In this document: in pieces, positions 878 through 64,000 of the stretch
Numbering within the stretch: position 1 is the stretch's first letter
Layout: every line of letters begins with the position of its first letter
Notes under the pieces: generated by a model
Seen by the model: the letters and a program-made list of their open reading frames with translations, nothing else
Databases searched by the model: none
What the model was told of the DNA's origin: nothing
Translations under genes and position numbers: made by a program
Assembly: GCF_011045215.1 (NCBI RefSeq)
Contig: NZ_CP049201.1
From: Escherichia coli
GTDB lineage: Bacteria; Pseudomonadota; Gammaproteobacteria; Enterobacterales; Enterobacteriaceae
DNA length: 64,000 nt
Direction: 5' to 3' (one strand)

Positions 878-4424
<3,547 letters not shown>

Positions 4425-13260: not shown

Positions 13261-16413
<3,153 letters not shown>

Positions 16414-16432
16414 TTAACGGCTCCTGTTTAAG

Positions 16433-17626
16433 TTAAGACTTGGACTGTTCAGGCTGAGCACCGCTTGCGGCTTGCTGGTTATTATCAGCGGTAACTTCTT
16501 GTGCTTTTACCTGGACACCAGGACGCACTTTCTGCAGCCCACTTATTACTACGCGATCGCCTGCTTTCAGACCTTCTGTCACCAGCCACTTATCGCCAAT
16601 AGCCTGGCTTGCAACGATCGGACGGGTTTCCACTTTGTCATCCGCGCCAACTACCAGTACGGTGGCATCGCCACGCGGCGTACGGGTTACGCCCTGTTGC
16701 GGGACTAAAATAGCGTTTGGATTAAGCCCTTCTTCCAGACGTGCGCGCACGAACATACCCGGCAGCAGAGTGTGATCCGGGTTCGGGAAGATAGCGCGTA
16801 GGGTGATAGACCCAGTGGTCTGATCAACGGTAACGTCAGAGAATTCCAGCGTACCGTCCTGCGGGAACTTAATGCCGTCACTGGTGATCAGCGACACTTT
16901 GGCTTTGCCGTTCTCTTGTTTCAGCGTGCCATTCGCCAGTTCCTGTTTCAGGCGCAGGAAGTCGTTGCTGGACTGGGTCACATCAACGTAGATCGGATCA
17001 AGTTGCTGCACGGTTGCCAGCGCAGTCGCCTGACCGTTCTGTACCAATGCGCCTTCCGTCACGTTCGACTTACCAATGCGACCGCTAATCGGAGAGGTTA
17101 CTTTGGTGTAAGCCAGATTGATCCGCGCAGTTTCAACAGCAGCTTTCGCCGCAGTTACCGCAGCATTCGCCTGTTGCGCATCAGCCAGAGCCTGATCGTA
17201 CTCTTGCTTACTGATGTACTGAGTACCGAGCAGTTTCTGATAACGATTCACCGTCAATTGCGCGATATTGGCTGCAGCCTGGGCTTTCGCCAGATCACCT
17301 TTCGCACTGTCGTATGTCGCCTGATAGGTCGCAGGATCAATCTGATAGAGAGAGACACCTGCTTCGATGTCGCTACCTTCTTTGAAATTACGCTTCAGGA
17401 TAATCCCGCTAACTTGAGGACGAACTTCTGCGATCCGGTAGGCACTGGTGCGACCCGGAAGCTCGGTTGTGATCTGCAGAGGTTCAGTTTTGACTGTTAC
17501 TACGCCAACGGCGGGCATCTGCTGGCCACCTTGTTGGGCCTGTTTGTCGTCACATCCTGTTAGGGCTAAGCTGCCTGAGAGCATCAGAACGACCGCCAGA
17601 GGCGTAAACCCTCTGTTTTTGTTCAT
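16433..17626 (-). CDS. acrA: periplasmic adaptor (membrane fusion) protein AcrA
   Basis: Track ORF 16433-17662; lipoprotein start MNKNRGFTPLAVVLMLSGSLALTGC at the internal Met (17626). Confidence 0.95.
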   Translation of the reverse strand: MNKNRGFTPLAVVLMLSGSLALTGCDDKQAQQGGQQMPAVGVVTVKTEPLQITTELPGRTSAYRIAEVRPQVSGIILKRNFKEGSDIEAGVSLYQIDPATYQATYDSAKGDLAKAQAAANIAQLTVNRYQKLLGTQYISKQEYDQALADAQQANAAVTAAKAAVETARINLAYTKVTSPISGRIGKSNVTEGALVQNGQATALATVQQLDPIYVDVTQSSNDFLRLKQELANGTLKQENGKAKVSLITSDGIKFPQDGTLEFSDVTVDQTTGSITLRAIFPNPDHTLLPGMFVRARLEEGLNPNAILVPQQGVTRTPRGDATVLVVGADDKVETRPIVASQAIGDKWLVTEGLKAGDRVVISGLQKVRPGVQVKAQEVTADNNQQAASGAQPEQSKS

Positions 17627-41081: not shown

Positions 41082-43586
41082 TTATTCCTTCGGTTTAAAC
41101 CGCAGCAACCGGTTGGCGTTACTCACTACGGTAATCGACGAGAGCGCCATTGCCGCTCCGGCAACCACCGGGTTAAGCAGTGTTCCAGTAAACGGCCACA
41201 AAATACCGGCGGCAACCGGAATACCGATGCTGTTGTAGATAAACGCGCCGAGCAGGTTCTGCTTCATGTTGCGCAGCGTTGCGCGGGAAATAGCGAGCGC
41301 ATCCGCAACGCCCATCAGGCTATGGCGCATCAGGGTAATCGCCGCGGTTTCAATAGCAACATCACTGCCGCCACCCATCGCAATGCCGACATCCGCCTGA
41401 GCCAGCGCTGGCGCGTCGTTAATGCCGTCGCCCACCATTGCCACCTGACGTCCTTCACTTTGCAGACGTTTGATCGCTTCGGCTTTACCGTCTGGCAGCA
41501 CCCCGGCGATCACCTCATCAATCCCTGCTTCTTTGGCGATCGCATTGGCGGTGGTTGGGTTATCCCCGGTCAACATCACCAGACGATATCCCGCTTTATG
41601 CAGGCGTTGCAGCGCCGCCACGCTATCACTACGCAACGGATCGCGTACAGCCAGCAGGGCTACCGCTTTCCCGTCAACCGCCAGCAGCACTGGCGTTGCC
41701 CCTTGCGATGCCTGAGCTGAAATATCTGCTTCAATCGCTTTAGTATCAACTTGCTGGTCATTTAACAGCGCCTGATTGCCCAGCAATAACGCATGACCTT
41801 CAGCTTCACCGCTCACGCCCAGCCCGCGCAATGTGCGGAAACCGTTGACCTGCGGCAGCTGCATATCGCTTGCTTTATCGAGGATCGCCCGTGCCAGCGG
41901 ATGGCTGGAACCTTGTTCCAGTGCCGCCGCCAGACGCAGCGCCTGCGCTTCGTCAAAATCAGCAAATGTTTTCACTGCGACAACCTGCGGCTTCCCTTCG
42001 GTCAGCGTCCCGGTTTTATCGAACACGACGGTATCGAGTGTACTGGCGCGTTGCAGCGCGTCGGCGTCCCGCACCAGCACGCCAAACTCAGCCGCCCGCC
42101 CGACGCCGGAAATAATCGACATCGGCGTCGCCAGCCCCAGCGCACACGGACAGGCAATAATCAGCACCGTGGTGGCAATCACCAGGGTATAGACAATCTG
42201 CGGTGCCGGACCAAAGAAATACCAGATTGCCGCACTGACAAGCGCAATCACCACTACTACCGGCACAAATACGGCTGAGATTTTATCCGCCAGCTGACCG
42301 ATTTCTGGCTTGCTGCTCTGGGCCTGGCGCACCATACGAATAATCCTTGATAACGTGGTATGGCTGCCAACCGCACTGGCGCGAAACAGCACGCTACCGT
42401 CCTGCACCACTGTCCCGGCATGGACGCTATCGCCTTCGCCTTTTTGCTGCGGGATAGGTTCGCCCGTCAGCATCGCTTCATCCAGCCATGCTTCGCCTTG
42501 GGTAATCTCGCCATCTACCGGCACGCGATCGCCGGTCGTCAGGCGCAGCAACATACCTGGCTGCACTTCCGCCAGCGGCACGCTTTTTTCACCTTCGTCA
42601 GTAACCAGGCGCGCCGTCGGTGGGGTTAAATCGAGTAATTTCTCCAGCGCCTTAGAAGAACGCTGACGTGCGCGCGCTTCCAGCATATGACCGAGATTAA
42701 TCAGACCGATAATCATCGCACTGGCTTCATAGTAAAGATGCCGCGCTTCCATCGGGAACCACTGCGGCCACAGGTTGACGCTCATCGAATAGAGCCACGC
42801 CACACCCGTACCCAGCGCCACCAGCGTATCCATCGTCGCCGCACCGTTCAGCAGGCTTTTCCATGCACTGCGGTAAAAATGGCCGCCGGCGAAAACCATC
42901 ACTGCCAGGGTTATCAGGCCGATAACCAACCACAGGCTGCGGTTGTCAGCGGTGACCATCATGTTATCGCCGATCATCCCCCAGACCATCACCGGGATAC
43001 CCACCGCCAGTGCGACAATCGCCTGCCAGCGGAAGCGCTTCATCGTAGCGACGGCGGTTTCCTGCTGGCGCTCGCGGCGTTTAGCGTCATCTTCAATCGC
43101 TTCCGCGCCGTAGCCCGCTTTTTCCACCGCCTGCACTAAATCTTGTGGGGAGGCACTGCCCATCACCAGCGCAGTACGCTCCGCCAGGTTTACCCGTGCC
43201 TGAGTGACGCCCGGTACGCTTTGCAGCGCATTTTGTACGCGGGTGACACAGCTGGCGCAGCTCATGCCGCTCAGCAGCAACTGCTGGCTGTCATCGTCAT
43301 CGGCAGTCGCTGCCGGAAGCGCCTCAGAAACCGCTGTCAGTGCTTCCGACGGGATTGATGACTCCGCCAGCGGTTTAGCCTTTGGGTGGCTTACAGATGC
43401 GTCATAACCCGCTTGTTTGATGGTTTCGATCAGCTGTTCTGCACTGGCAGTCCCGGTAACGTGCGCTTCAGTGATAGACACATCCGCTTGTTCCACATCC
43501 GGGCGCTGTTCGAGACTTTCTTTCACGCGTTTAACGCAGTGACCGCAGGACAGGCCGTCCAGGGTCAGGTCGATAGTTTGTGACAT
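41082..43586 (-). CDS. copA: Cu(I)-translocating P1B-type ATPase CopA
   Basis: 834-aa ORF with two N-terminal CxxC metal-binding domains (GLSCGHC, GMSCASC), CPC motif in the TM region, DKTGTLT phosphorylation site. Confidence 0.97.
43375..43386 (-). promoter_or_regulatory. copA programmed -1 frameshift site producing the 70-aa chaperone CopA(Z)
   Basis: Minus-strand heptamer C CCA AAG at codons 67-69 (43380-43386); the -1 frame reads CCC AAA GGC TAA, terminating after the first metal-binding domain at 70 aa. Confidence 0.75.
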
Positions 43587-43847: not shown

Positions 43848-44780
43848 ATGTTAGATGCAAACAAATTACAGCAGGCAGTGGATCAGGCTTACACCCAATT
43901 TCACTCACTTAACGGCGGACAAAATGCCGATTACATTCCCTTTCTGGCGAATGTACCAGGTCAACTGGCAGCAGTGGCTATCGTGACCAGCGATGGCAAC
44001 GTCTATAGTGCGGGTGACAGTGATTACCGCTTTGCGCTGGAATCCATCTCGAAAGTCTGTACGTTAGCCCTTGCGTTAGAAGATGTCGGCCCGCAGGCGG
44101 TACAGGACAAAATTGGCGCTGACCCGACCGGATTGCCCTTTAACTCAGTTATCGCCTTAGAGTTGCATGGCGGCAAACCGCTGTCGCCACTGGTAAATGC
44201 TGGCGCTATTGCCACCACCAGCCTGATTAACGCTGAAAATGCCGAACAACGCTGGCAGCGAATTTTACATATCCAACAGCAACTGGCTGGTGAGCTGGTA
44301 GCGCTCTCTGACGAAGTCAACCAGTCGGAACAAACAACCAACTTCCATAACCGGGCCATTGCCTGGCTGCTGTACTCCGCCGGATATCTCTATTGTGATG
44401 CAATGGAAGCCTGTGACGTGTACACCCGTCAGTGCTCCACGCTCATCAATACTGTTGAACTGGCAACGCTTGGCGCGACGCTGGCGGCGGGTGGTGTGAA
44501 TCCGTTGACGCATAAACGCGTTCTTCAGGCCGACAACGTGCCGTACATTCTGGCCGAAATGATGATGGAAGGGCTGTATGGTCGCTCCGGTGACTGGGCG
44601 TATCGTGTTGGTTTACCGGGCAAAAGCGGTGTAGGTGGCGGTATTCTGGCGGTCGTCCCTGGAGTGATGGGAATTGCCGCGTTCTCACCACCGCTGGACG
44701 AAGAAGGCAACAGTGTTCGCGGTCAAAAAATGGTGGCATCGGTCGCTAAGCAACTCGGCTATAACGTGTTTAAGGGCTGA
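43848..44780 (+). CDS. glsA: glutaminase 1 (serine-dependent beta-lactamase-like fold)
   Basis: 310-aa ORF MLDANKLQQAVDQAYTQFHSLNGGQNADYIPFLANVPGQ... Confidence 0.92.
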   Translation: MLDANKLQQAVDQAYTQFHSLNGGQNADYIPFLANVPGQLAAVAIVTSDGNVYSAGDSDYRFALESISKVCTLALALEDVGPQAVQDKIGADPTGLPFNSVIALELHGGKPLSPLVNAGAIATTSLINAENAEQRWQRILHIQQQLAGELVALSDEVNQSEQTTNFHNRAIAWLLYSAGYLYCDAMEACDVYTRQCSTLINTVELATLGATLAAGGVNPLTHKRVLQADNVPYILAEMMMEGLYGRSGDWAYRVGLPGKSGVGGGILAVVPGVMGIAAFSPPLDEEGNSVRGQKMVASVAKQLGYNVFKG

Positions 44781-44782
44781 TC

Positions 44783-46075
44783 ATGATGAACACGGAAGGT
44801 AATAACGGTAACAAACCTCTCGGTCTATGGAACGTCGTTTCCATCGGCATTGGGGCAATGGTGGGGGCGGGGATCTTCGCGCTGCTGGGGCAGGCTGCGT
44901 TGCTAATGGAAGCCTCGACATGGGTCGCCTTTGCTTTTGGCGGTATTGTGGCGATGTTTTCCGGTTATGCCTATGCGCGTCTGGGGGCGAGCTATCCCAG
45001 CAATGGCGGCATTATCGACTTCTTTCGTCGCGGATTAGGCAACGGCGTCTTTTCGCTGGCGCTCTCGTTACTGTACCTGTTGACGCTGGCGGTGAGCATC
45101 GCCATGGTCGCCCGTGCTTTTGGCGCTTATGCCGTGCAGTTTTTGCATGAAGGCAGCCAGGAGGAGCACCTTATTTTGCTCTACGCGTTGGGGATCATTG
45201 CGGTGATGACGCTTTTCAACTCCTTAAGCAACCATGCGGTAGGGCGGCTGGAAGTGATCCTCGTCGGCATTAAAATGATGATCCTGTTATTGCTGATTAT
45301 TGCCGGTGTCTGGTCGCTGCAACCGGCGCATATTTCCGTCTCTGCGCCCCCCAGCTCCGGTGCGTTCTTCTCCTGTATCGGGATAACCTTCCTTGCCTAT
45401 GCGGGCTTTGGCATGATGGCGAACGCGGCGGATAAAGTGAAAGATCCGCAGGTCATTATGCCACGGGCGTTTCTGGTGGCGATTGGCGTTACCACGTTGC
45501 TTTATATCTCGCTGGCGCTGGTTTTGCTTAGCGATGTATCGGCATTAGAGTTAGAAAAATATGCCGATACCGCCGTAGCGCAGGCAGCTTCTCCGCTGCT
45601 CGGGCATGTGGGTTATGTGATCGTCGTCATCGGCGCTTTACTGGCGACGGCTTCAGCCATCAACGCGAACCTGTTCGCCGTGTTTAACATCATGGACAAC
45701 ATGGGCAGCGAACGCGAACTGCCGAAGCTAATGAATAAATCCCTGTGGCGGCAGAGTACCTGGGGCAACATCATTGTCGTGGTGTTGATTATGCTGATGA
45801 CGGCGGCACTAAATTTAGGCTCACTCGCCAGCGTTGCCAGCGCCACCTTTTTGATTTGCTATCTGGCGGTGTTTGTGGTGGCGATCCGCCTGCGTCATGA
45901 TATTCACGCCTCGTTGCCGATTCTTATCGTAGGTACGTTGGTGATGTTGTTGGTGATCGTTGGCTTTATCTACAGCCTGTGGTCCCAGGGCAGCCGTGCG
46001 TTGATATGGATTATTGGTGCAATCTTACTCAGCCTTATTGTGGCAATGGTCATGAAGCGTAATAAAACCGTATAA
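44783..46075 (+). CDS. ybaT: APC-superfamily amino-acid transporter YbaT
   Basis: 430-aa polytopic membrane ORF 3 nt downstream of glsA (probable operon). Confidence 0.9.
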   Translation: MMNTEGNNGNKPLGLWNVVSIGIGAMVGAGIFALLGQAALLMEASTWVAFAFGGIVAMFSGYAYARLGASYPSNGGIIDFFRRGLGNGVFSLALSLLYLLTLAVSIAMVARAFGAYAVQFLHEGSQEEHLILLYALGIIAVMTLFNSLSNHAVGRLEVILVGIKMMILLLLIIAGVWSLQPAHISVSAPPSSGAFFSCIGITFLAYAGFGMMANAADKVKDPQVIMPRAFLVAIGVTTLLYISLALVLLSDVSALELEKYADTAVAQAASPLLGHVGYVIVVIGALLATASAINANLFAVFNIMDNMGSERELPKLMNKSLWRQSTWGNIIVVVLIMLMTAALNLGSLASVASATFLICYLAVFVVAIRLRHDIHASLPILIVGTLVMLLVIVGFIYSLWSQGSRALIWIIGAILLSLIVAMVMKRNKTV

Positions 46076-46412
46076 CACCTCTCTGTGCGCAGTACTTTCT
46101 GTACTGCGCCTTTGTCTTTAATTCAAATTACCTTTCTTATTCCTTTAATAAATAAGTCACAAAAAAATGATATATACGCGATAAATCTGTGATGCTAATC
46201 ACTTATTACCGTGGATTATTCTTAATGTGTATGATGGTAATCTAAAAGTCGTAGTGTATTCTAAATAAATAACGTATAAGCTTTTTAGCTGCATTTCTTT
46301 GCCCATATCAATGATCGACAAAAGAGATGCACAAGTTATTACCCTTCTTAATAAAATGAGACTGGTTATAAAAACCAGTTAAAATAATGACCTGGAAGGA
46401 AGTGACTTACCT

Positions 46413-47768
46413 ATGGCGCGATTCCAGTTTAAAAACCGTAAAAATAATGGACTTATTTTTTTAATAAGTTTTATGGTGATGGGAGAAGCTGCAATTGCTG
46501 CACCGCTGCCACAATGGGCGAATGCCCCAGCGGTAACGCCAGTTGCCCGATTATCTTTACAGGAAAGTATATTACGCGCCTTTGCGCGAAATCCCGACGT
46601 CACTCAACAGGCGGCGCAGATAGGCATTGGCGAAGCGCAAATTGATGAAGCCAAAAGTGCCTGGTATCCGCACGTTGGATTAACCGGCAACGCGGGGCCG
46701 TCCCGACAAACGGACTCCAGCGGCAGGCTTGATAACAACGTTTCGTATGGCATAACCCTGACACAACTGGTGTATGACTTTGGTAAAACTAACAACGATA
46801 TCAATCTGCAAACTGCCGCCCGTGACAGCTACCGCTTTAAATTGATGGCTACCTTAACCGATGTTGCAGAGAAAACGGCGACTGCCTATATGGAAGTCAG
46901 TCGTTATCAGGCTTTGTGCGATGCGGCTCAACGCAATATTCACTCGCTGGAAAACGTCTACAACATGGCGGCATTGCGCGCTAACGCTGGCCTGAACTCA
47001 TCGTCGGATGAATTACAGGCCCAGACGCGTATTGCCGGAATGCGCTCAACGCTGGAGCAATATCAGGCGCAGATGGCGAGCGCCAAAGCGCAACTGGCGG
47101 TGCTCACTGGCGTACAGCCAGAGGCGATAGCCGCGCCACCTGCTGAATTAGCCGAGCAGCCGGTATCGCTGAAGAATATTGATTACCAGTCCATCCCGCT
47201 GGTGCTGGCGGCAGAAAACTTACGCCAGTCAGCACAGTACGGCGTGGAAAAAACGAAAGCGCAATACTGGCCAACGCTCAGTATTCAGGGGGGTAAAACG
47301 CGCTACCAGACCAGCGACCGCTCGTATTGGGATGATCAGCTACAACTGAACGTTAACGCGCCGCTGTATCAAGGCGGCGCGGTTTCTGCCCAGGTGCAAC
47401 AGGCCGAAGGGCAACAAAAAATCTCTGCCTCGCAGGTCGAACAGGCAAAACTGGATGTGCTGCAACGAGCGTCTGTGGCATATGCGAACTGGACCGGCGC
47501 ACGGGGTCGCGAAGAAGCCGGTTTAGCGCAATCCGAAAGTGCGCACAAAACGCGAGATGTGTACCAAAATGAATATAAATTGGGTAAACGCAGTCTGAAT
47601 GATCTATTAACCGTCGAGCAAGATGTCTTTCAGGCGCAATCGGCTGAAATAAATGCCAATTATGATGGCTGGGTCGCCGCCGTAAATTATGCCGCTGCGG
47701 TGAATAACCTTATTCCTTTAGCGGGAATTAAACAGGGCTTATACAACGACTTACCCGACTTGAAATAA
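46413..47768 (+). CDS. TolC-family outer-membrane channel, probable type I secretion outer membrane protein
   Basis: 451-aa ORF with N-terminal signal-like hydrophobic segment (LIFLISFMVMGEAAIAAP); TolC-like composition and helical repeat pattern (LSLQESILRAFARNPDV, ...YDFGKT..., coiled-coil Q/A-rich segments); sits immediately upstream of the giant repeat protein gene; preceded by an AT-rich region. Confidence 0.7.
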   Translation: MARFQFKNRKNNGLIFLISFMVMGEAAIAAPLPQWANAPAVTPVARLSLQESILRAFARNPDVTQQAAQIGIGEAQIDEAKSAWYPHVGLTGNAGPSRQTDSSGRLDNNVSYGITLTQLVYDFGKTNNDINLQTAARDSYRFKLMATLTDVAEKTATAYMEVSRYQALCDAAQRNIHSLENVYNMAALRANAGLNSSSDELQAQTRIAGMRSTLEQYQAQMASAKAQLAVLTGVQPEAIAAPPAELAEQPVSLKNIDYQSIPLVLAAENLRQSAQYGVEKTKAQYWPTLSIQGGKTRYQTSDRSYWDDQLQLNVNAPLYQGGAVSAQVQQAEGQQKISASQVEQAKLDVLQRASVAYANWTGARGREEAGLAQSESAHKTRDVYQNEYKLGKRSLNDLLTVEQDVFQAQSAEINANYDGWVAAVNYAAAVNNLIPLAGIKQGLYNDLPDLK

Positions 47769-47870
47769 TCCTGCCATTATTAATAGTGGGCCGTTGTTAA
47801 GTGATTACCTTTGTCTTATTTAGATAAATGGACTCGCTAAGGATGTGCGCCATTTATCAGGAATGCTATT

Positions 47871-50800
47871 ATGAGCCTGATTATTGATGTTATTTCGCGT
47901 AAAACATCCGTCAAACAAACGCTGATTAATCCTGGCGACGTCACGGTTGTTATTTATGAGCCTTCCGTGGTGCAGGTTCATGCTCAGGCCTCTGCCGTTG
48001 CGCGTTACGTCCGTGAAGGAAATGACCTGCTGATCTATTTGCAGGACGGCACGGTGATCCGCTGCAACGGTTATTTCCTGCAAGCGGCGAATACAGCTGA
48101 ACAATCGGAACTGGTGTTTGCCGATGGTCAACAGCTAACCCATGTCACCTTCGCCGATACTGCTGCGGGTGGATTAGCCCCCGTAGAACTGACTGCCCAG
48201 ACCACTGCGATTGAAAGCATTGCGCCATTTCTTGATACCGTTGCTCAGACCAGCGCCTTCCCGTGGGGTTGGCTGGCGGGGGCGGCGGTAGGTGGCGGTG
48301 CGCTTGGTGCACTGCTGGCAAGCGGTGGCGATGGCGACTCGAAAACAGAAGTGATTAATAACCCTACGCCACCTGCTGAGCCTGGCAACGCCACACCATC
48401 ATTTTTAGTTACCGATAATCAGGGCGATCAGCGCGGCATTCTCGCCACCAATGACATCACCGATGACACCACGCCAACCTTTAGCGGCAGCGGGCAGGCG
48501 GGGGCGACTATTCAGATTAAAGACAGTAACGGCAATACTATTGCCAGTACTCAGGTAGACAACAACGGTCACTGGAGTGTCTCGTTACCCACGCAAAGTG
48601 CAGGTGAACATACCTGGTCAGTGGTGCAAATTGTCGGCAGTACCATCACTGACGCCGGTTCGATAACGTTAACCATCGACAATAGTCAGGCCAGCGTGCA
48701 GGTTGCCACCACCGCAGGCGATAACATTATTAACGCCAGCGAACAGGCCGCCGGGTTTACGCTTTCTGGCACCAGTAGCCATCTGGCACAGGGAACAGAA
48801 CTCACCGTCACACTTAACGGCAAAACCTACACCACCAGCGTAGGCGCTAACGGTGCCTGGAGCGTGCAGGTGCCGACCGCCGATGCACAGGCGTTAGGCG
48901 AAGGGAATCAGGCGGTACTGGTCAGTGGGAAAGACACCACAGGCAATACGGTCACCGGCGCGCAGCTGCTAACGGTCGATACCCAACCGCCAACGCTTGC
49001 CATCAACACCATCGCTCAGGACAACATCATCAGTGCTGCGGAACATAACGTCGCGCTGGTACTGAGCGGCACGTCGAATGCAGAAGCGGGGCAAACCGTA
49101 ACACTGACCGTCAACGGGAAAAGCCATACAGCAACCGTCGGTAGCGACGGAACCTGGCAAGTGACGCTGCCTGCCACGGAAGTCCAGGCACTGGCGGAGG
49201 GTAATTACGCTGTCAATGCCAGTGTCAGCGATCGGGCAGGGAACACCACCAGCCACAGCGCGAATCTCACGGTAGACACCTCAGCACCCGTGGTCAGTGT
49301 TAATACCGTGGCGGGCGACGATATTCTTAATAATGCCGAGCAGGCCGTCGCGCAGATCATCTCCGGACAAGTTAGCGGTGCTTCTCCTGGCGATACGGTA
49401 ACGGTGAAATTGGGCACTCATGTCCTGACGGGCATCGTGCTGGCAGATGGCAGCTGGAATGTGGCGTTGGACCCGGCGGTAACCCGCACGCTGGATCGCG
49501 GAGCCAATACGATTTTCGTCACCGTGACAGATGCTGCAGGAAATACTGGCGCGGCGTCTCGAGCAATCACGCTGGTCGGTGTTTCTCCGTTGATCACCAT
49601 TAACACCGTCTCCGGCGATGACATTATCAGTGGCGCAGAAAAAGGTGCGCCACTGACCCTTACCGGTAGCACTCAACAGGCTGAGACAGGACAAACCGTC
49701 ACAGTAACCCTGGCTGGACAGAGTTTTACCACTACCGTGCAGGCCGATGGCTCCTGGAGTCTGACGGTACCTGCCGCCGCGATGGGAAATCTGCCTGACG
49801 GCGCGGTGGCGATTACCGCTTCTGTGACGGATCTCAGCGGCAATACCGGCAACACCTCCCGCACCATTACCGTCGACAGCCAGGCCCCGGCCTTAAGCAT
49901 TGATCCACTGACCGCTGATAACATCATTAACGCCGCCGAAAGCGGGCAGGATCTGCCCATCACCGGCACCACCGACGCTCAGCCGGGGCAGACGGTGACC
50001 GTTACGTTAAATGGGCAGACGTATCAGGGCGTCGTGCAGCCAGACGGCACCTGGAGCGTGACTGTGCCCGCCGCCAACGTGGGCGCACTGGCTGACGGCA
50101 ACGCTACGGTCACCGCCAACGTGAACGATGTCGCCGGTAATCCGAGCAGCGTCTCACGCGTGGCGCTGGTCGATGCCACGCCGCCGGTGGTGACCATTAA
50201 TCCGGTGGCGACCGATAACGTCATTAACACGCCGGAACATACCCAGGCGCAAATCATCAGCGGTACGGTTACTGGCGCTCAGGCGGGCGATATCGTCACC
50301 GTGACGCTGAATAATGTGAATTACACCACGGTGGTGGATGGTTCCGGCAACTGGAGCCTGGGCGTTCCGGCCTCGGTGGTCAGTGGGCTGGCGGACGGCA
50401 GTTATCCTGTCAGCGTCTCGGTAACCGACAAAGCCGGAAACACGGGCAGCCAGTCACTGACTGTCACGGTCAATACCGCAGCGCCCCTTATCGGCATTAA
50501 CAGCATTGCGGGCGATGATGTGATTAATGCCAGCGAAAAAGGGGCCGATCTCCAGATTACCGGCACCAGCGATCAGCCAGTGGGTACCGCCATCACCGTG
50601 ACGCTCAACGGGCAAAACTATGCGGCGACGACCGATGCCTCCGGCAACTGGAGCGTCAACGTTCCGGCATCGGCGGTAACCGCACTGGGCCAGGCCAACT
50701 ACACGGTAACGGCGGCGGTAACCAGCGATATCGGCAACAGCACCACCGCCAGCCATAATGTGCTGGTCGACAGCGCGCTGCCCGGCGTGACCATTAACCC

Positions 50801-53800
50801 GGTGGCAACCGATGATATTATTAACGCCGCCGAAGCGGGCGTGGCGCAAACCATCAGCGGGCAGGTGACTGGAACCGCCGTTGGCGACGCGGTAACCGTG
50901 ACGCTGGGCGGTAATACCTACACCACCACCGTGCAGGCCGGCTTAAGCTGGAGCGTGGACGTTCCGGCGGACGCTATTCAGGCGCTGGGTAATGGCGATT
51001 TAACGGTTAATGCCTCGGTCACCAATCAAAACGGCAACACCGGCAGCGGCACGCGGGATATCACCATCGACGCCAATCTGCCCGGCCTGCGGGTCGATAC
51101 GGTGGCGGGCGATGATGTGGTCAATATCATCGAGCACGGGCAGGCGCTGGTGATTACCGGCAGCAGTTCGGGGCTGGCAGAAGGCACGCCGCTTACCGTT
51201 ACGATTAATAATGTGGAATACACCACTGCGGTGCAGGCCGATGGTAGCTGGAGCGTGGGCGTCACGGCGGCGCAGGTTAGCGCCTGGCCTGCGGGGACGG
51301 TTAATATTGCCGTGTCCGGGGAAAGTAGCGCCGGAAATCCGATAAGCATTACGCATCCGGTAACGGTGGATCTCACTCCGGCGGCTATCACCATCAACAC
51401 TATCGCCACGGACGATGTGATTAACGCTGCAGAAAAAGGGGCTAATTTAACTCTTTCCGGCACCACCACTAACGTAGAAGCAGGGCAAACCGTCACTGTC
51501 ACCTTTGGCGGTAAAAATTACACCGCCAGCGTGGCGGGCGATGGTAGCTGGACTGCCACCGTTCCCGCCGCCGATCTGGCGGCATTACCGGAAGGCAGCG
51601 CCTCCGCTCAGGCCAGCGTCAGCAATATCAACGGCAATAGCGCCTCGGCGGTGCATAACTACAGCGTCGACAGCAGCGCGCCAACCATCATTATCAATAC
51701 CGTCGCCAGCGACAATATCGTCAACGCCAGCGAAGCCGATGCGGGTGTGACGGTGAGCGGCAGCACCACCGCTGAAGCGGGGCAGATTGTTACGGTAACG
51801 CTCAATAGCCCGACCGTGCAGACGTATCAGGCAACGGTACAGGCGGACGGCAGCTGGAGCATCAATATTCCGGCGGCAGATCTTGAGGCATTGACCGATG
51901 GCAGCCACACCCTGACCGCGACGGTCAATGACAAAGCGGGCAACCCGGCGAGCACCACGCATAATCTGGCGGTGGATCTCACCGTCCCGGTACTCACCAT
52001 CAATACCATTGCGGGCGATGACATTATTAACGCCGCCGAGCACGGACAGGCGCTGGTGATTTCTGGTTCCAGCACAGGCGGAGAGGCGGGAGATGTCGTC
52101 ACCGTCACGCTAAACAGTAAAACCTACACCACGACGCTGGATGCCTCCGGCAACTGGAGCGTCGGTGTTCCGGCGGCGGATGTCACCGCGCTGGGTAGCG
52201 GCCCGCAAACCATCACTGCCAGCATTACCGATGCGGCAGGTAATAGCGACAGCGAAACGCACACGGTCACCGTTAACCTTACCGCGCCGACCATTGGCAT
52301 TAACACCATCGCCACCGATGACGTGATTAATGCCACCGAAAAAGGCGCAGATCTGCAAATCTCCGGCACCAGTAATCAGCCAGCGGGCACCACGATTACG
52401 CTGACGTTTAACGGGCAAAATTACACCGCCACGACGGACGCCGCAGGTAACTGGAGCACCACGGTGCCAGCCTCTGCCGTCGGTGCGCTGGGCGAAGCCA
52501 GCTACACGGTGACGGCGAACGTCACCGACAGCGCAGGCAACAGCAATTCCGCCAGCCATAACGTGCAGGTCAATACCGCGCAGCCTGGCGTCACCATTAA
52601 TCCGGTTGCGACTGACGATATTATTAACGCCGCCGAATCGGGCAATGCGCAAACCATCAGCGGTCAGGTAACGGGCGCGGCGGCGGGCGATACCGTCACC
52701 GTGACGCTTGGCGGGAAAACCTACACGGCTACCGTGCAGGGGAATCTAAGCTGGAGCGTGGATGTTCCGGCTGCGGATATTCAGGCCATCGGTAATGGCG
52801 ACCTGACTGTTAACGCCTCAGTGACCAACGGCGTTGGCAATACCGGCAGCGGTTCGCGAGATATTACTATCGACGCCAACCTGCCTGGCCTGCGCGTCGA
52901 TACCGTGGCGGGCGATGATGTGGTTAACAGCATCGAACACGGTCAGGCACTGGTGATAACTGGTAGCAGCAGCGGGCTGGCGGTGGGCGCGGCGCTGACG
53001 GTGGTGATCAATAACGTCACCTATGGCGCGACAGTATTAGCCGATGGCACATGGAGCGTTGGTGTTCCGGCGGTAGACGTGAGTAACTGGCCTGCGGGTA
53101 CGGTGAATATCACGGTAAGTGGCACTAACACAGCCGGAACAACATCCACCATTACCCATCCGGTCACCGTCGATCTGGCGGCGGTGGTGATTTCCATTAA
53201 CACCATCTCCGGCGATGATGTGATTAACGCCGCCGAAAAAGGGGCAGATTTAACCCTTTCCGGCAGCACCTCCGGCGTAGAGCCAGGGCAAACGGTCACC
53301 GTCACCTTTGGCGGCAAAACCTACACCGCCACCGTAGCAGGCGATGGTAGCTGGACAACCACCGTACCTGCCGCCGATCTCAGCGTGTTACGCGACGGCG
53401 ACGCCACGGTACAGGCCAGCGTCAGCACTATTAACGGCAACACGGCTTCGGCAACCCACGCTTACAGCGTTGATGCCACTGCCCCGACGCTTGCCATTAA
53501 TACCATCGCCACCGACGATATTCTGAACGCCGCCGAGGCGGGCAATCCGCTAACCATCAGCGGCAGTAGCACCGCTGAAGCGGGGCAGACGGTAACTGTC
53601 ACGCTTAATGGCGTGACTTACACCGGCACCGTCCTGGCGGACGGGAGCTGGAGCGTCAGCGTGCCGACGGCGGATCTCAGCAATCTGACCGCCAGCCAGT
53701 ACACCGTCAGCGCCTCGGTAAACGATAAAGCGGGTAACCCGGCATCCACCACTCACGGGCTGGCGGTGGATCTCACCGTGCCGGTGCTGACCATCAACAC

Positions 53801-56800
53801 CGTCTCCGGCGATGACATTATTAACGCCGCCGAACACGGACAGGCGCTGGTGATCTCCGGCTCCAGTACTGGCGGCGAAGCGGGCGATGTCATCACCGTC
53901 ACGTTAAACAGTAAAACCTACACCACCACGCTGGATGCCTCCGGTAACTGGAGCGTCGGCGTTCCGGCGGCAGATGTCACCGCACTTGGCAGCGGCCCGC
54001 AAACCATCACGGCCACGATTACGGATATCGCGGGTAATAGCGATGATGCTAGCCGCACGGTCACCGTAAATCTCACCGCGCCAACCATTGGCATCAACAC
54101 CATCGCCACCGATGACGTGATTAACGCCACGGAAAAAGGCGCGGATCTGCAAATTACCGGCACCAGTAATCAGCCCGCGGGCACCACCATTACGGTGACG
54201 TTGAACGGGCAAAATTACACCGCTACTACCGATAGCAACGGCAACTGGAGCGCCACGGTGCCAGCGTCAGCGGTTAGCACGCTGGGTGAAGCTAACTACA
54301 CGGTAACCGCGAACGTCACCGACAGCGCAGGTAACAGCAATTCCGCCAGTCATAACGTGCTGGTCAACAGCGCCTTGCCTGCCGTCACCATTAACGCGGT
54401 GGCGACCGACGATATTATTAACGCTGCCGAAGCGGGCAATGCGCAAACCATCAGCGGGCAGGTGACGGGTGCCGCGGCGGGCGACACGGTTACCGTTACG
54501 CTGGGCGGCAACACCTACACCGCTACCGTACAGGCTAATTTAAGCTGGAGCGTTAGCGTGCCAGCGGCGGATATTCAGGCGCTGGGCAACGGCGACCTGA
54601 CAATTAATGCCTCGGTCACTAACGTCGTCGGCAACACCGGCAGCGGCTCGCGCGATATCACGATCGACGCCAATCTGCCTGGCTTACGGGTCGATACCGT
54701 GGCGGGCGATGATGTGATTAACAGCATTGAGCACAATCAGGCGCTGGTGATCACCGGTAGCAGCACCGGGCTGACGGCGGGAACGGCGTTAACGGTCGAG
54801 ATTAACAACGTTACTTATGGCGCGACGGTGTTAGCCGACGGCACATGGAACCTCGGTGTTCCGGCGGCAGACGTCAGCAACTGGCCTGCGGGTACGGTGG
54901 ATATCACGGTAAGCGGCACCAACAGCGCCGGAACAACCTCCACCATTACCCATCCGGTTACCGTCGATCTGTCGGCAGTCGCCATCACCATTAACACTCT
55001 CTCTGGTGATGATGTGATCAACGCCGTCGAAAAAGGCGAAACGCTGGTCGTAAGCGGCAGCACCAGCGGTGTCGAAGCCGGGCAAACGGTGACCGTCACC
55101 TTTGGCGGCAAAAATTACACCACCACTGTGGAAGCTAACGGTAGCTGGACGGTGAACGTACCGCCTGCCGATCTCGCTGCGCTACCGGACGGTGCGGGCA
55201 ACGTGCAGGCGAGTGTCAGCAACATCAACGGCAATAACGCCCAGGCGGATCGTACGTACAGCGTCGATGCCACCGCGCCACTTGTGACCATCAACACCAT
55301 CGCCAGCGACGATATCCTTAACGTGAGCGAAGCTGGCGCGGGGATCACCATCAGCGGCACTACCACGGCGCAGGCCGGGCAGACGCTGACCGTCACGCTC
55401 AATAATAACACGTACCAGACCACGGTTCAGGCGGATGGCACCTGGAGCGTGAATGTTCCGGCAGCGGATTTAAGCGGATTAACCGCCAGCAGTTACACCG
55501 TGACCGCCACGGTGAGCGACAAAGCGGGTAACCCGGCAAGCGCCGACCACGCGCTGGCGGTGGACGTTACCGCACCGGATCTCACCATTAATACCGTCGC
55601 GGGCGATGACATTATTAATGCCATCGAACACGGTCAGGCGCTGGTCGTCAGCGGAACCAGCACGGGCGCGGCGGCGGGTGATGTGGTCACGGTTAACCTG
55701 AACGGTAAAAACTACACCACCACGCTGGATGCCTCCGGTAACTGGAGCGTGGGCATTCCTGCGGTGGATGTGACGGCGCTGGCAACCGGCAACCAGACCA
55801 TTACCGCCAGCCTGAGCGATCGCGCGGGCAACAGCGACAGCACGACTCACAATGTGACCGTTGATCTCAGCGGCCCGACGCTGACCATCAACACCGTCTC
55901 CGGCGATGACATTATTAATAATGCGGAGAAAACCCAGGACTTGATCATCAGCGGCGGCTCCAGCGGTCTGGCGGCAGGCACTACGGTCACCGTGATGTTG
56001 AACGGCCTGGCGTACAGCGCTACTACCGACGGCTCCGGCAACTGGAGCGTTACCGTGCCTGCTTCTTCGGTTGGCGCGCTCGGCGAGGCGGTGTATCAGA
56101 TTAGCGCCAGCGCCACCGACAGCGCGGGCAACAGTGGCAGCACCACCCATACGGTGAATGTCGAATCGCTCCTGCCTGGGGTAATCATTAATACCGTGGC
56201 GGGCGATGACATTATCAACGCCGCTGAAATCGCTGTGGCGCAGACCATCAGCGGTCAGGTCACGGGGACGGCGGTTGCGGGTAATACGGTGATTGTCACC
56301 ATTGGCGGCAATCAATATAACGCCACCGTGCAGTCAGATTTAAGCTGGAGCGTCAGCGTACCTGCGAACGTTTTGCAGGCGCTGGGCAACGGTGAACTGA
56401 CCATCAGCGCCTCGGTGACTAATTCCGCAAATAATACCGGCACCACAACGCACGACATCGTGATAGATGCCAACCTGCCAGGTCTGCGCGTCGATACCGT
56501 GGCAGGCGATGATGTGATTAACAGCATCGAGCACACTCAGGCGTTGGTGATCACCGGTAGCAGTAGCGGACTGGCGGCGGGCGCGGCGTTGACGGTGGTT
56601 ATCAATAGCGTCACCTACGGCGCAACGGTTTTAGCGGATGGTAGCTGGAGCGTTGGTGTTCCGGCGGCAGATGTCACAAACTGGCCTGCGGGGACGGTCA
56701 ATATTGCCGTCTCTGGCACCAACACCGCCGGAACGACAACCAGTATTACCCATCCGGTGACCGTCGATCTCGCAGCCGTGGCGATCACCATCAACACCCT

Positions 56801-59800
56801 TTCCACTGACGATGTGATTAACGCCGCCGAAAAAGGCAGCGATTTGCAGCTCTCCGGCACCACCTCCGATGTGGAAGCGGGGCAAACCATCACCGTTATC
56901 TTCGGCGGCAAAAGCTACACCACCACGGTTGCCGCGGATAATACCTGGGGGCTGACGATCCCTGCCGCCGATGTTGCAACCTTGCCAGACGGCGCAGCAA
57001 ACGTCCAGGCCAGCGTCAGCAATGTCGCAGGGAACAGCGCCCAGGCAACGCATGCTTACAGCGTTGATGCCACTGCGCCCTCCGTTACCATCAACACCAT
57101 CGCCACGGACGATATTCTTAACGCCGCCGAAGCGGGATCGGCGCTGACCATCAGCGGCACCAGCACGGCGGAAGCCGGGCAGACGGTGACCGTAACGCTA
57201 AACGGCGTTAATTACAGCGGCAATGTGCAGGCAGACGGGAGCTGGAGCGTCAGCGTCCCGACCGGCGATTTAGCTAACCTCACTGCCAGCCCCTATACGG
57301 TGAGCGCAGCGGTCAGCGACAAAGCCGGAAATCTGGCTTCGGCGACGCATAACCTGACGGTGGACCTTGCCGCTCCGGTCGTCACCATTAACACGGTGGC
57401 GGGCGATGACATCATCAACGCCACGGAACACGGACAGGCGCAGATTATCAGCGGCTCGGCAACGGGCGCGACGACGGGTAACACGGTTTCCGTGACGATT
57501 GGCACGACCACCTACGCCACTGTGCTGGACGCCAACGGCAACTGGAGCATCGGCGTACCTGCCAGCGTGATTTCCGCACTGGCGCAGGGTGATGTAACCA
57601 TTACTGCCACGGTTACCGACTCCGCAGGCAACAGTGGCACGGCTTCGCACATTGTCAGCGTGGCGCTCGGCGCGCCGATACTCAGCATTAACACCATTGC
57701 CGTCGACGACATCCTCAACGCCACGGAGAAAGGTGCAGATCTGGCGATTACCGGCACCAGCAACCAGCCCGCGGGTACGCAGATTACCATTACGCTCAAC
57801 GGGCAAAATTACACCACCACTGCCGATGCATCCGGGAACTGGAGCGTAACCGTTCCGGCGTCACGGGTCAGCGCCCTCGGTGAAGCCACTTATACGGTGA
57901 CTGCCGCCGCCACTGACACCGATGGCAACAGCGGTTCCGCCAGCCATAATGTGCAGGTCAATACCGCGCTGCCGGGCGTCACCATTAACGTGGTGGCGAG
58001 CGACGATATTATTAACGCCGCCGAAGCGGGCGCGGGCCAGACCATCAGTGGGCAGGTGACGGGTGCTGCGGCAGGCGATACCGTTACCATAACGCTCGGC
58101 GGAGCGACTTACACCGCTACGGTGCAGGCGAATTTAAGCTGGAGCGTCGATGTTCCGGCCTCCGCGCTACAGGCGTTGGGCAACGGTGAGCTGACCATTT
58201 CGGCCTCGGTAACGAACAGCGTGGGCAATACAGGTAACGGCACGCGCGAAATCACCATCGACGCGAATCTCCCTGGTCTGCGGGTCGACACCGTGGCGGG
58301 CGATGACGTGGTCAACATTATCGAGCACAATCAGGCGCTGGTGATTACCGGCAGCAGCTCCGATCTGGCAGCGGGCAGCAACGTCACGCTGACCATAAAC
58401 GGGCAAACGTATGTTGCGGCGGTGCTGGCGGATGGCTCATGGAGCGTCGGCGTTCCGGCGGCAGATGTCAGCGCCTGGCCTGCGGGGAAGGTCACAATTA
58501 CGGCGAGCGGCAACACCACCGCCGGAAACCCGGTGAGCGTTACGCATCCGGTGACGGTCGATCTCACTGCGGTGGCGGTCAGCATCAACGCCATTACTGC
58601 CGATGACGTGATTAACGCTGCCGAAAAAGGCGCGGCGTTAACGCTCTCTGGCAGCACTACTGGTGTGGAGGCCGGACAAACGGTCACCGTCACCTTTGGC
58701 GGCAAAACTTACAGCGCCACGGTGGCTGCGAATGGTTCCTGGAGCACCTCGGTTCCGGCGGCAGATATGGCGGCCCTGCGTGATGGCGATGCCAGCGCAC
58801 AGGCCAGCGTCAGCAATGTTAACGGCAACAGCGCCACCACTACCCACGCATACAGCGTCGATGCCAGCGCGCCAACGGTGACCATTAACACCATTGCGGG
58901 CGACGACATTCTTAACGCCGCCGAAGCCGGAGCGGCGCTAACCATCACCGGCAGCAGCACGGCGGAAGTGGGGCAGACGGTGACCGTCACGCTCAATGGC
59001 GCAAACTATACCGGCACTGTACAGACGGACGGCAGCTGGAGCGTCAGTGTGCCGCCAGCCGACTTAAGCGCTCTGACCGCCAGCAACTACACCGTTAGCG
59101 CGGCGGTGAGCGACAAAGCCGGAAACCCGGCCTCGGTTAACCACAACCTGACGGTGGATACTTCCGTTCCGGTCGTCACCATCAACACGGTGGCAGGCGA
59201 TGATGTGATCAACGCGACGGAACACGCCCAGGCGCAGATCATCAGCGGCTCCGCCACGGGAGCGGTAACCGGTAGCACCGTGACGGTGACTATCGGCACA
59301 AATACCTTTACCACGGTGCTGGATGCCAGCGGCAACTGGAGCGTCGGCGTCCCGGCAAGCGTCGTCTCGGCACTGGCGAACGGCACGGTGACCATTAACG
59401 CCAGCGTCACTGATGCCGGAGGAAACAGCGGCAGCACCACCCATCAGGTGACGGTCAATACCGGGCTGCCGACCATTACCTTTAACGCTATCAGCGGCGA
59501 TAACGTCCTGAACGCCGATGAAAAAGGCCAGCCGTTGACCATCAGCGGTAGCAGTACGGGGCTGGCGACGGGCGCGCAGGTTACCGTCTCGCTCAACGGT
59601 CACAACTACAGTGCTACCACCGACGCAGCAGGCAACTGGACCTTAACCGTGCCGGTGAGCGATCTGGCGGCTCTAGGCCAGGCCAACTATACCGTCAGCG
59701 CCAGCGCCACCAGTGCGGCGGGCAACACCGCCAGCAGCCAGGCGAATTTACTGGTCGACAGCGGCCTGCCGGGCGTCACCATCAACACCGTAGCGGGCGA

Positions 59801-62800
59801 CGATATTATCAACGCCGCCGAAGCGGGGGCCGATCAAACCATCAGCGGGGTGGTGACTCGCGCCGCCGCAGGCGATACGGTCACCGTGACGCTGGGCGGC
59901 AACACTTACACAGCGCAGGTTCAGGCCGATTTAAGCTGGAGCGTCACCGTTCCGGCAGCCGATTTCCAGGCGCTGGGCAATGGTGATTTGACCATTACCG
60001 CCTCGGTCACCAACGCGAATGGCAACACTGGCAGCGGCACGCGGGATATCACCATTGACGCCAACCTGCCTGGGCTGCGGGTGGATACCGTGGCGGGCGA
60101 TGATATCGTCAACAGTATCGAGCACGGGCAGGCGCTGGTGATCACCGGCGGCAGTAGCGGCCTGAATGCAGGTGCTGTGCTGACGGTTACCATCAACAGT
60201 GTGGCGTATTCCGCCACGGTACAGGCGGACGGGAGCTGGAGCGTCGGCATTTCGGCGGCAAGCGTCAGCGCCTGGCCTGCGGGGCCGTTAACCGTTGATG
60301 TGGCAGGACAGAGCAGCGCCGGAAATCCGGTCAGCGTCAGCCATCCGTTCACCGTCGATTTAACTTCGGTGGCTATCAGCATCAACACCGTTGCCAGCGA
60401 CGACGTAATTAACGCCGCCGAGAAAGGCACCGACCTGACCCTTTCCGGCAGCACCAGCGGGATTGAAAGTGGGCAAACCGTTACCGTCACCTTTGGCGGT
60501 AAAACCTACACCGCAAGCGTCGCCGCCAATGGAAGCTGGAGCGTAACGGTTCCGGCGGCGGATCTGGCAGCTCTGCCAGACGGCGCGGCGAACGTGCAGG
60601 CCAGCGTCAGCAGCGCGAGCGGCAATAGCGCCTCAGCGACTCATGCGTACAGCGTTGACGCCAGCGCGCCGACGCTCACCATTAACACCATCGCCAGCGA
60701 TGACATCCTTAACGCGGCAGAGGCGGGAAATCCGCTGACCATCAGCGGCACCAGCACCGCCGAAACCGGGCAGACGGTGACCGTCACCCTTAACGGCGCA
60801 ACCTACAGCGGTAATGTGCAGGCAGATGGTAGCTGGAGCGTCAGCGTTCCCACTTCAGCCCTGGGCGCGCTCACCGCAAGCAATTATACCGTCAGCGCCA
60901 CCGTCAACGACAAAGCGGGTAACCCCGGCAGCGCCAGCCATAATCTGGTGGTAGACACCACCGCGCCGGTTCTTACCATAAATACCGTGGCGGGCGATGA
61001 CATCATCAACGATGCCGAACATGCGCAGGCGCTGGTGATCTCCGGCACCAGTAGCGGCGGGGAAGCGGGCGATGTGGTGAGCGTTGTGCTCAACGGCAAA
61101 ACCTACACCACCACCCTGGATGCCTCCGGCAACTGGAGCGTCGGCGTTCCGGCGGCGGATGTTACGGCACTCGGTAGCGGTGCGCAGACCATCACCGCCA
61201 GCGTCAGCGATCGGGCAGGCAACAGCGACGACGCCAGCCGCACCGTCACCGTTAGCCTCAGCGCGCCAGTGATTAGCATCAACACCATCGCGGGCGATGA
61301 TGTGATCAACGCGACGGAAAAAGGATCCGATCTGGCGCTTTCCGGCACCAGCGATCAGCCTGCGGGTACGGCGATCACCGTCACGCTGAACGGACAAAAC
61401 TACAGCGCCACTACCGACGCCTCCGGCAACTGGAGCGTTACTGTGCCCGCCTCGGCGGTCAGTGCGCTGGGCGAAGCGACCTACAGCGTCACGGCGAGCG
61501 TCACCAATGCCCAGGGCAACAGCAGCACCGCCAGCCATAACGTGCAGATCAATACCGCGCTGCCGGGCGTCACCCTTAATCCGGTGGCGACGGACGATAT
61601 TATCAATGCCGCCGAAGCGGGCAGCGCACAAACCATCAGCGGCCAGGTAACCGGGGCGGCGGCGGGCAGTACCGTCACCGTTGAACTGGGCGGTAAAACT
61701 TACACCGCCATCGTCCAGGCTGATTTAAGCTGGAACGTGAGCGTACCAGCCGCCGACTGGCAGGCGCTGGGTAACGGTGAGTTAACCGTTAACGCCTCGG
61801 TCACCAACGCCGTTGGCAACACCGGCAGCGGCACGCGCGATATCACCATCGATGCCAGTCTGCCTGGCCTGCGGGTGGATACCGTCGCGGGTGATGATGT
61901 GGTCAATATCATCGAACACAGTCAGGCGCAGGTGATCACCGGCAGCAGCTCTGGCTTTGCGGCGGGCACGGCGCTGACGGTGGTGGTAAATAACCAAACT
62001 TACGCCGCCACGGTGCTGGCGAACGGCAGCTGGAGCGTCGGCGTTCCGGCGGCGGATGTCAGCAACTGGCCTGTGGGAACGCTGAATATTAGCGTTAGCG
62101 GCGCAAACAGTGCCGGAACGCAAACCAGCATTACCCATCCGCTGACTGTTGATCTCACGACCGTCGCCGTCAGCATGAACAGCATCACCAGCGATGATGT
62201 GATTAACGCCGCCGAAAAAGGCGCGGCGCTAACGCTCTCCGGCAGCACGTCTGGCGTCGAAGCGGGGCAAACCGTCACCGTCACCTTTGGCGGCAAAACC
62301 TACACCTCCACGGTGGCGGCTAACGGTAGCTGGAGCACCACCGTTCCGGTTGCGGATATGGCGGCGCTGCGTGACGGCGATGCCAGCGCCCAGGTGCGGG
62401 TGACTAACGTCAACGGCAACAGCGCCACGGCAACGCACGAATACAGCGTCGATAGCGCCGCGCCAACGGTCACCATCAACACCATTGCCAGCGATAACAT
62501 CATCAACGCCAGCGAAGCGGCGGCGGGCGTAACGGTGTCCGGCACCAGCACGGCGGAAACCGGGCAGACGCTCACCGTCACGCTTAACGGCACTAACTAC
62601 CAGACCACGGTGCAGGCAGACGGCAGCTGGAGTTTAACGCTGCCCGCCAGCGACTTAACCGCACTGGCTAATAACGGCTACACCCTGACCGCCACGGTCA
62701 GCGATCTGGCGGGTAACCCTGGCAGCGCCAGCAAAGGCGTGACCGTCGATACCACTGCGCCGGTGATCAGTTTTAACACCGTGGCGGGCGATGATGTGAT

Positions 62801-64000: not shown

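Follow-up and report, generated by a model that had tools for sequence, protein, structure and literature searches.

The DNA analysed here (the window, 64,000 nt of the E. coli chromosome) breaks off inside a giant adhesin gene. [quoted passage not shown] The system itself is already known, as it is the published O-island 28 type I secretion/RTX adhesin system. A first-pass annotation of the same DNA had recognized a channel gene at 46413-47768 as the sole secretion gene of this region and reported that the ABC transporter and the periplasmic adaptor were absent from the window. Both statements were borne out: the channel gene is an intact TolC-family gene, and six-frame tblastn searches with the ABC and adaptor (MFP) proteins of homologous loci found no type I ABC homologue and no adaptor in 46413-64000. 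Secretion genes appear to be lacking because the window stops ~4.6 kb before the end of the adhesin gene; this is very probably a consequence of where the sequence was cut and not a biological oddity.

Channel and adhesin genes in the window

Positions 44000-49000 match 5422 of 5426 complete E. coli genomes, with strain PapM-32-1 as the best match (99.8%). The locus follows ybaT in the window, and its features, together with the preceding backbone genes, are listed below.

41082-43586, - strand: copA, mapped from the annotated gene order of PapM-32-1
43848-44780: glsA, mapped from the annotated gene order of PapM-32-1
44783-46075: ybaT, mapped from the annotated gene order of PapM-32-1
46087-46109, + strand: ybaT terminator, a hairpin with a T-run behind it, from a terminator scan; left edge of the island
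46119-46132, + strand: RstA box TAATTCAAATTACC, exact match and the sole copy in the window
46413-47768, + strand: TolC-family outer-membrane channel gene (451 aa), with TIGR01844 and two OEP domains
47871-64000, + strand: 5' part of the giant adhesin gene siiEA, an open frame with NF047714, colinear with PapM-32-1
47883-48266, + strand: BapA prefix-like N-terminal domain (aa 5-132), a full-model match to Pfam BapA_N (E=1.3e-19) and NF033677 (69 bits)
48159-48170, + strand: TAAG di-alanine motif (aa 97-100), read from the sequence
48426-64000, + strand: Ca2+-stabilized Ig-like extender repeats of ~100 aa (aa 186-5376), 52 whole and one cut by the window end

The regulatory region (46076-46412) has a GC content of 32%, compared with 52% for the backbone and 61% for the adhesin gene. 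Its RstA box is located at -294 to -281 relative to the ATG of the channel gene; in O157:H7, RstA binds the same box at -294 to -280 of tolC28 (PMC12758282). The channel protein scores 416 bits against the type_I_sec_TolC model TIGR01844 (cutoff 225), contains two Pfam OEP domains and has a signal peptide ending in AIA/AP. It reaches only 67 bits against the model of housekeeping TolC (cutoff 495); the channel is therefore a dedicated paralogue. It is identical to WP_069913436.1 of PapM-32-1, and its gene corresponds to Z0608/tolC28 of O-island 28.

The adhesin frame is open on the + strand from 47841 to 64000, and its ATG at 47871, preceded by AGGA, is followed by 5376 codons without a stop. 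These represent the first part of ~6925 expected codons, leaving ~1549 codons to the stop. Residues 1-230 match the adhesin_SiiEA model NF047714, the 229-aa SiiEA N-terminal signature, with 505 bits (cutoff 425); NCBI annotates the homologous gene as "BapA-related adhesin SiiEA". The BapA_N-type domain (PF22783) near the N-terminus is the presumed retention plug, by analogy with related adhesins. PDB sequences gave chance-level matches only when searched with the N-terminal 300 aa. The TAAG motif stands where the LapG cleavage site is found in LapA-like adhesins, which have (T/P)AAG near residue 100, and is followed by a Gly/Ala-rich hydrophobic stretch. The reference di-alanine sites are 108AA109 in LapA and 106AA107 in DvhA (PMC10990149).

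The remainder of the visible protein is built from Ig-like repeats, for which a self-built HMM delineated 53 domains at a spacing of 99-102 aa. These repeats match NF033510 (Ca_tandemer, "Ca2+-stabilized repeat") and Big_13, and among solved structures they match the MpAFP RII tetra-tandemer 4P99 (E=7e-46) and 5IRB (E=8e-34). They were counted at the protein level because the ~300-nt units are only ~73-76% alike as DNA; Tandem Repeats Finder reported no repeats in 47800-64000. The visible part of the protein is rich in Thr, Ala, Val, Gly and Ser and contains a single cysteine, with 8% Asp+Glu versus 2% Lys+Arg, and this composition is consistent with the GC content of the gene. RTX nonapeptides were not detected in the 5376 residues encoded in the window. 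Long antisense ORFs in the adhesin gene (up to 278 aa) were treated as shadows of a GC-rich repetitive gene, and they showed no similarity to the ABC or adaptor proteins in the six-frame tblastn search.

Housekeeping drug-efflux genes are located elsewhere in the window: mdlA (878-2650), mdlB (2643-4424), acrB (13261-16410) and acrA (16433-17626). The mdlA and mdlB genes encode ABC exporters, while acrA, which adjoins acrB, encodes an RND adaptor; neither is a type I secretion partner. When the whole window was searched, the ABC query matched only the nucleotide-binding domains of mdlA (1952-2563) and mdlB (3468-4340), at 27-29% identity, and the MFP query gave nothing at E<0.01 in all six frames by tblastn. 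We considered mdlAB and acrA as borrowed partners and rejected them, since they belong to other families, the ABC similarity is restricted to the nucleotide-binding domains at that low identity and the MFP query does not match acrA.

Homologous loci beyond position 64000

The missing parts of the system were read from colinear relatives. Positions 44000-63997 of the window align with PapM-32-1 as one gap-free block (95.7% nucleotide identity), and the two adhesin proteins remain in register over 5376 residues, with 94-100% amino acid identity per 400-aa bin. In PapM-32-1, siiEA encodes a protein of 6925 aa (689 kDa, pI 4.05) and is followed by genes for an ABC permease/ATPase and an HlyD adaptor and then by cueR. 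Beyond the residue at which the window ends, the PapM-32-1 adhesin carries seven further repeats and then three FG-GAP_3 domains. Its RTX block was detected by HemolysinCabind (E=2e-4) and by similarity to the RTX block of CyaA (E=1.5e-4), with 3-5 nonapeptides at aa 6768-6823, and its C-terminus matches the type I target domain TIGR03661 with 33.4 bits (cutoff 17.6). The first-pass annotation had suggested that the adhesin C-terminus be inspected for a type I secretion signal and RTX repeats, as opposed to an autotransporter barrel; both are present in the colinear homologue, and neither an autotransporter barrel nor a TpsA domain was found in its C-terminal 1199 aa.

The ABC gene of PapM-32-1 starts three bases after the adhesin stop and encodes 720 aa with ABC_membrane and ABC_tran domains. 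The protein scores 837 bits against the LssB-type model TIGR03375 (cutoff 693) and 388 bits against the HlyB-subfamily model, for which the cutoff is 726; its alignment with HlyB (7SGR/8DCK) spans the full length. Within this alignment the first ~150 residues correspond to the C39-like domain of HlyB, and they give a weak Peptidase_C39 match (E=0.029). A C39-like N-terminus had been anticipated for the transporter and is thus found in the homologous protein, in a form devoid of Cys in the first 160 aa, which implies that the domain is non-catalytic. The adaptor (391 aa) belongs to the HlyD family, with 328 bits against TIGR01843 (cutoff 209). Overlaps of 4 nt join the adaptor gene to the ABC gene on one side and to cueR on the other.

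This arrangement of four genes ahead of cueR recurs in O55:H7 CB9615, in JX21CE8 and in eight further contigs, and the window end falls 4648 nt before the adhesin stop in all eight contigs. Two O157:H7 strains have the same order as far as it was read, with the ABC gene as the last gene covered in PV15-279 and the start of siiEA as the last part covered in F3113. Extending the view downstream, as the earlier annotation had proposed, therefore places an ABC gene and an HlyD-family gene directly 3' of the adhesin gene in homologous loci. On the scale of the window, the expected equivalents are an adhesin stop at ~68648, an ABC gene at ~68652-70814 and an adaptor gene at ~70811-71986. The first-pass annotation had also placed the partner genes and the C-terminal signal past position 64000. 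The colinear relatives support this placement, and synteny makes it highly probable that the adhesin tail, the ABC gene and the adaptor gene follow downstream in the strain from which the window comes.

Three other explanations were weighed against that of a complete locus. It is unlikely, though the least improbable of the three, that the locus in this strain is decaying, with a frameshift or stop in the ABC or adaptor gene or in that stretch of siiEA which lies past the window end. Such decay does occur in relatives: the ABC gene is frameshifted in JX21CE8, the adhesin gene has a stop at codon 1027 in PV15-279 and F3113, the channel gene of PV15-279 is also frameshifted, and the adhesin is split in two in a metagenome contig (L010). 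However, all visible parts of the locus are intact in the window, including a channel identical to that of PapM-32-1, 5376 stop-free codons and a TGG at the position of the O157:H7 stop, and no lesion is seen in the closest relative or in most of the loci examined.

The possibility that only the channel and the adhesin are present at this site, with ABC and adaptor components borrowed from elsewhere, had been offered in the first-pass annotation as an alternative to partners beyond the window, and it appears very improbable. Nothing positive speaks for it, the mdlAB and acrA genes of the window being members of other families. The two ends of the island co-occur in complete genomes: of 5426, 958 carry the left end (channel plus adhesin start) and 959 the ABC-MFP pair. 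In the loci inspected, the two partner genes directly follow the adhesin gene, and the genomes without the island appear to share one deletion that removed all four genes together. Less probable still, to the point of being negligible, is export of the giant protein as an autotransporter or two-partner substrate, with the TolC-like gene unrelated to it. No support was found for such a route, and it is opposed by several observations: no Sec signal peptide is evident on reading the adhesin N-terminus (MSLIIDVISRK...), the homologous C-terminal region consists of FG-GAP, RTX and type I target domains, and the channel is assigned to the type I subfamily of TolC proteins by its model match. Moreover, deletion of tolC28, hlyB28 or hlyD28 lowers O-island 28-dependent adherence in O157:H7 (PMC12758282). 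A complete type I secretion locus, cut by the window end, thus remains the preferred reading.

Proposed export route and related systems

With the gene identities, gene order and domain content observed here, the locus would run from a promoter region with an RstA box through the dedicated TolC-like channel and the adhesin to the ABC permease/ATPase and the HlyD adaptor. In the route that we propose, a dimer of the ABC protein, with its C39-like and transmembrane domains, would engage the unfolded adhesin through the C-terminal signal, and the ABC protein, adaptor and channel would together thread the adhesin outward with its C-terminus leading. Extracellular Ca2+ would then fold the RTX block and stiffen the ~60 Ig-like repeats into a long stalk, which would present the FG-GAP region as the putative ligand-binding part. 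Finally, the BapA-type N-terminal domain may stay in or under the dedicated channel as a plug, so that the adhesin would be held on the surface as in the two-step mechanism of LapA-type proteins. We infer this retention step from the sequence-profile match and from the analogy with LapA.

The LapA system of Pseudomonas fluorescens (with LapB, LapC and LapE) likewise pairs a giant RTX adhesin built of Ig repeats with a TolC-like channel of its own. The ABC proteins belong to the same LssB/LapB subfamily, and in both adhesins an N-terminal domain is followed by a di-alanine site near residue 100 (TAAG in siiEA). Adhesins of the LapA/LapBCE type combine an N-terminal retention module with a di-alanine site and use a dedicated TolC-like channel as their anchor (PMC10990149). 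The siiEA locus differs from the LapA system in its gene order and in having no gene for the LapG protease or the LapD c-di-GMP receptor in or beside it; no such genes are annotated in or beside the homologous loci. As a separate observation, the siiEA adhesin carries a LapG-type TAAG site, although, to our knowledge, neither LapG nor LapD is known from E. coli.

The N-terminus of the siiEA adhesin is of the BapA prefix-like type (NF033677, PF22783) and precedes tandem Ig-like repeats, as in BapA of Salmonella enterica. The bapABCD genes provide BapA with a dedicated channel, an ABC transporter and an adaptor. The adhesin gene comes first in bapABCD, whereas the channel gene comes first in the siiEA locus, and the siiEA protein, at 6925 aa, greatly exceeds BapA in size and carries an FG-GAP region ahead of its RTX block.

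The gene name siiEA, borrowed from Salmonella SiiE, dates to the annotation of UMN026 (PMC3256949). SiiE of Salmonella SPI-4 is a giant non-fimbrial adhesin with ~53 Ig-like domains; it is stabilized by Ca2+ and has a dedicated type I system for its export (PMC8277102). The siiEA system resembles it as a giant Ca2+-stabilized Ig-like adhesin with its own type I exporter. The siiABCDEF order and the SiiA/SiiB proton-channel genes are, in contrast, not found in the siiEA loci examined, which consist of four genes only, and the NCBIfam matches of the adhesin in the window are to the SiiEA and BapA-prefix models.

Among solved structures, the repeats are most closely related to the Ca2+-rigidified extender of MpIBP/MpAFP from Marinomonas primoryensis. 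The overall plan is also shared, comprising an N-terminal anchor, an extender, a ligand-binding region, an RTX block and a secretion signal. MpIBP has other ligand-binding modules, while siiEA lacks an ice-binding domain, and the organism and the number of repeats are unrelated.

In comparison with the HlyA/HlyB/HlyD/TolC system of E. coli, the full-length alignment of the ABC protein, including the C39-like domain, and the HlyD-family adaptor constitute the main likenesses, together with the RTX nonapeptides and an uncleaved C-terminal signal in the siiEA homologue. The siiEA system differs in having its own channel instead of housekeeping TolC, and its ABC protein falls below the HlyB-subfamily cutoff and above that of LssB. 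In addition, its substrate is a presumably retained adhesin, whereas HlyA is a released toxin.

O-island 28 and the ybaT-cueR site

In O157:H7 strain EDL933, the O-island 28 genes are tolC28 (Z0608), rtxA28 (Z0609), rtxB28 (Z0615), hlyB28 (Z0634) and hlyD28 (Z0635) (PMC12758282). Deletion of the island or of any single one of these genes reduces epithelial adherence and mouse colonization by O157:H7, and Ca2+ raises expression of the island via RstA (PMC12758282). The channel-then-substrate order that the first-pass annotation gave for the O157 island is correct, both in the O157:H7 loci and in the published description (PMC12758282). The locus in the window resembles O-island 28 in its position after ybaT, its gene order, its RstA box at the same distance and its 94-100% protein identity along the adhesin. 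It differs from the O157:H7 version in that the adhesin gene of the latter is interrupted at codon 1027, where TGG has become TAG, and is ~106 codons shorter.

The internal stop at codon 1027 is present in the O157:H7 strains PV15-279 and F3113, in which PGAP calls the gene a pseudogene. The window has TGG at the corresponding position (50949-50951), and its frame is uninterrupted over all visible codons. The "two RTX proteins" of O157:H7 are accordingly one gene split by the TGG-to-TAG stop, and those in the published model are fragments of this single gene. As far as visible, siiEA is uninterrupted in the strain of the window but disrupted in O157:H7, the background in which the island was studied.

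A further observation concerns the strains without the island. The ybaT-cueR spacer of K-12 looks like a deletion scar, in which the left half of the terminator hairpin behind ybaT abuts the final ~100 nt of the adaptor gene. An alignment of K-12 with the window places this junction inside the ybaT hairpin, at ~46103 on the window, and the K-12-type junction is common to 4458 of the 5426 complete genomes. Of the adaptor gene, nearly all island-free genomes keep only these ~100 terminal nt beside cueR, at ~92% identity. Outside the species, at least one genome, that of Escherichia sp. E1V33, has a near-complete adaptor gene beside cueR, more of the adaptor gene than the scar retains is found in E. 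whittamii, and Escherichia sp. MOD1-EC7003 has the scar. The shared junction and the adaptor remnants in other Escherichia suggest that an ancestral island was lost, not that one was gained. We therefore somewhat favour the view that O-island 28 is the ancestral state of the ybaT-cueR site and that the ~82% of E. coli without the island, K-12 included, derive from a single deletion of ~25.8 kb.

If this is true, the K-12 sequence upstream of cueR is a remnant of a secretion gene, and O-island 28 is not an acquisition of pathogenic lineages. The published study treats the island as acquired and makes no mention of cueR (PMC12758282). An island-free state that looks like one shared deletion would change how the distribution of the island among pathotypes is read.

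Finally, the interior of the adhesin gene is much more diverged from the nearest genome than its flanks. In the best-matching complete genome, the flanks are 99.5-99.8% identical and the adhesin only ~96%; eight contigs that encode an identical ABC protein reach at most 96.5% to the last 5.3 kb of the window, and the species-representative genomes contain no exact match to its last 120 nt. As judged from these alignments, the divergence would fit recombination among alleles or repeats.

The ybaT-cueR interval with and without the island

The left edge of the siiEA island (O-island 28), which carries the genes for the TolC-family channel, the adhesin, an ABC transporter and an HlyD-family adaptor, was compared with the corresponding interval of K-12 (locus L006) and with the adaptor gene of an island-bearing genome (L002).

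Window 46076-46110: left junction, including the ybaT terminator hairpin
L006 3370-3493: ybaT-cueR spacer of K-12
L002 8143-8243: 3' end of the HlyD adaptor gene

The K-12 spacer is a deletion scar, in which the left arm of the ybaT terminator hairpin is fused to the final ~100 nt of the adaptor gene. This junction is common to 4458 of the 5426 complete E. coli genomes, and the island is present in 959 of the 5426. The island looks like the ancestral state, and its loss looks like a single, widespread deletion of ~25.8 kb.

On the right side, beyond the window, the adaptor stop codon overlaps the cueR start codon (ATGA) in island-bearing genomes (L002 8143-8146 and, in a second such locus, L007 13332-13335), and the region upstream of cueR in K-12 is an adaptor-gene remnant. 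Given this overlap, cueR may share a transcript with the secretion operon, or be coupled to it in translation, in island-bearing genomes. The cueR-ybbJ interval was found to be a second variable segment in the island-bearing genomes examined (L002 5282-7735; L007 13740-18275), containing a YadA-anchor (trimeric autotransporter) gene of 338-594 aa, depending on the genome, along with small hypothetical genes; cueR directly adjoins ybbJ in K-12.

Sequence features of the adhesin locus and its decay in other strains

Window 46119-46132: RstA box, TAATTCAAATTACC, upstream of the channel gene
Window 48159-48170: TAAG di-alanine motif, adhesin residues 97-100

The RstA box, an exact copy of the published one (PMC12758282), lies at -294 to -281 relative to the ATG of the channel gene, in an intergenic region of 32% GC. 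Within the adhesin, a hydrophobic stretch rich in Gly and Ala (aa ~128-155) comes after the TAAG motif. The protease LapG cuts LapA-like adhesins at the site equivalent to the position of this motif (PMC10990149); no genes for LapG or for the c-di-GMP receptor LapD were detected near the adhesin locus.

Compared with the closest complete genome, strain PapM-32-1, the window flanks (20000-47800) show 99.5-99.8% identity and the adhesin's N-terminal ~800 aa 99.5-100%, whereas identity in the repeat region (within window 47871-64000) falls to 94-97%. The best adhesin match among known alleles does not exceed ~96.5%. Allelic recombination or gene conversion inside the repeats would fit this divergence.

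siiEA is annotated as a pseudogene in O157:H7 strains PV15-279 and F3113. In PV15-279 (L005 23871-44330), codon 1027 has changed from TGG to the stop TAG; the window retains TGG (50949-50951). Given this stop, the 'two RTX proteins' published for O157:H7, Z0609 and Z0615 (PMC12758282), are pieces of a single gene. Frameshifts were also observed in the channel gene of PV15-279 and in the ABC gene of JX21CE8.

Other features of the window

Window 878-4424: mdlA/mdlB, ABC exporters
Window 13261-17626: acrB/acrA, RND pump and adaptor

Both gene pairs are unrelated to the adhesin system; a search by keyword ('ABC', 'membrane fusion protein') could pick them up in error. Many antisense ORFs (80-278 aa, minus strand, window 47820-63800) lie within the adhesin gene and are taken to be shadows of GC-rich repetitive coding sequence; six-frame tblastn of the window revealed no ABC or adaptor similarity in them. 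A megablast probe spanning window 20000-44000 had hits at a median of 33 sites in each E. coli genome, which points to some short dispersed repeat, perhaps REP/BIME-like, within this region.
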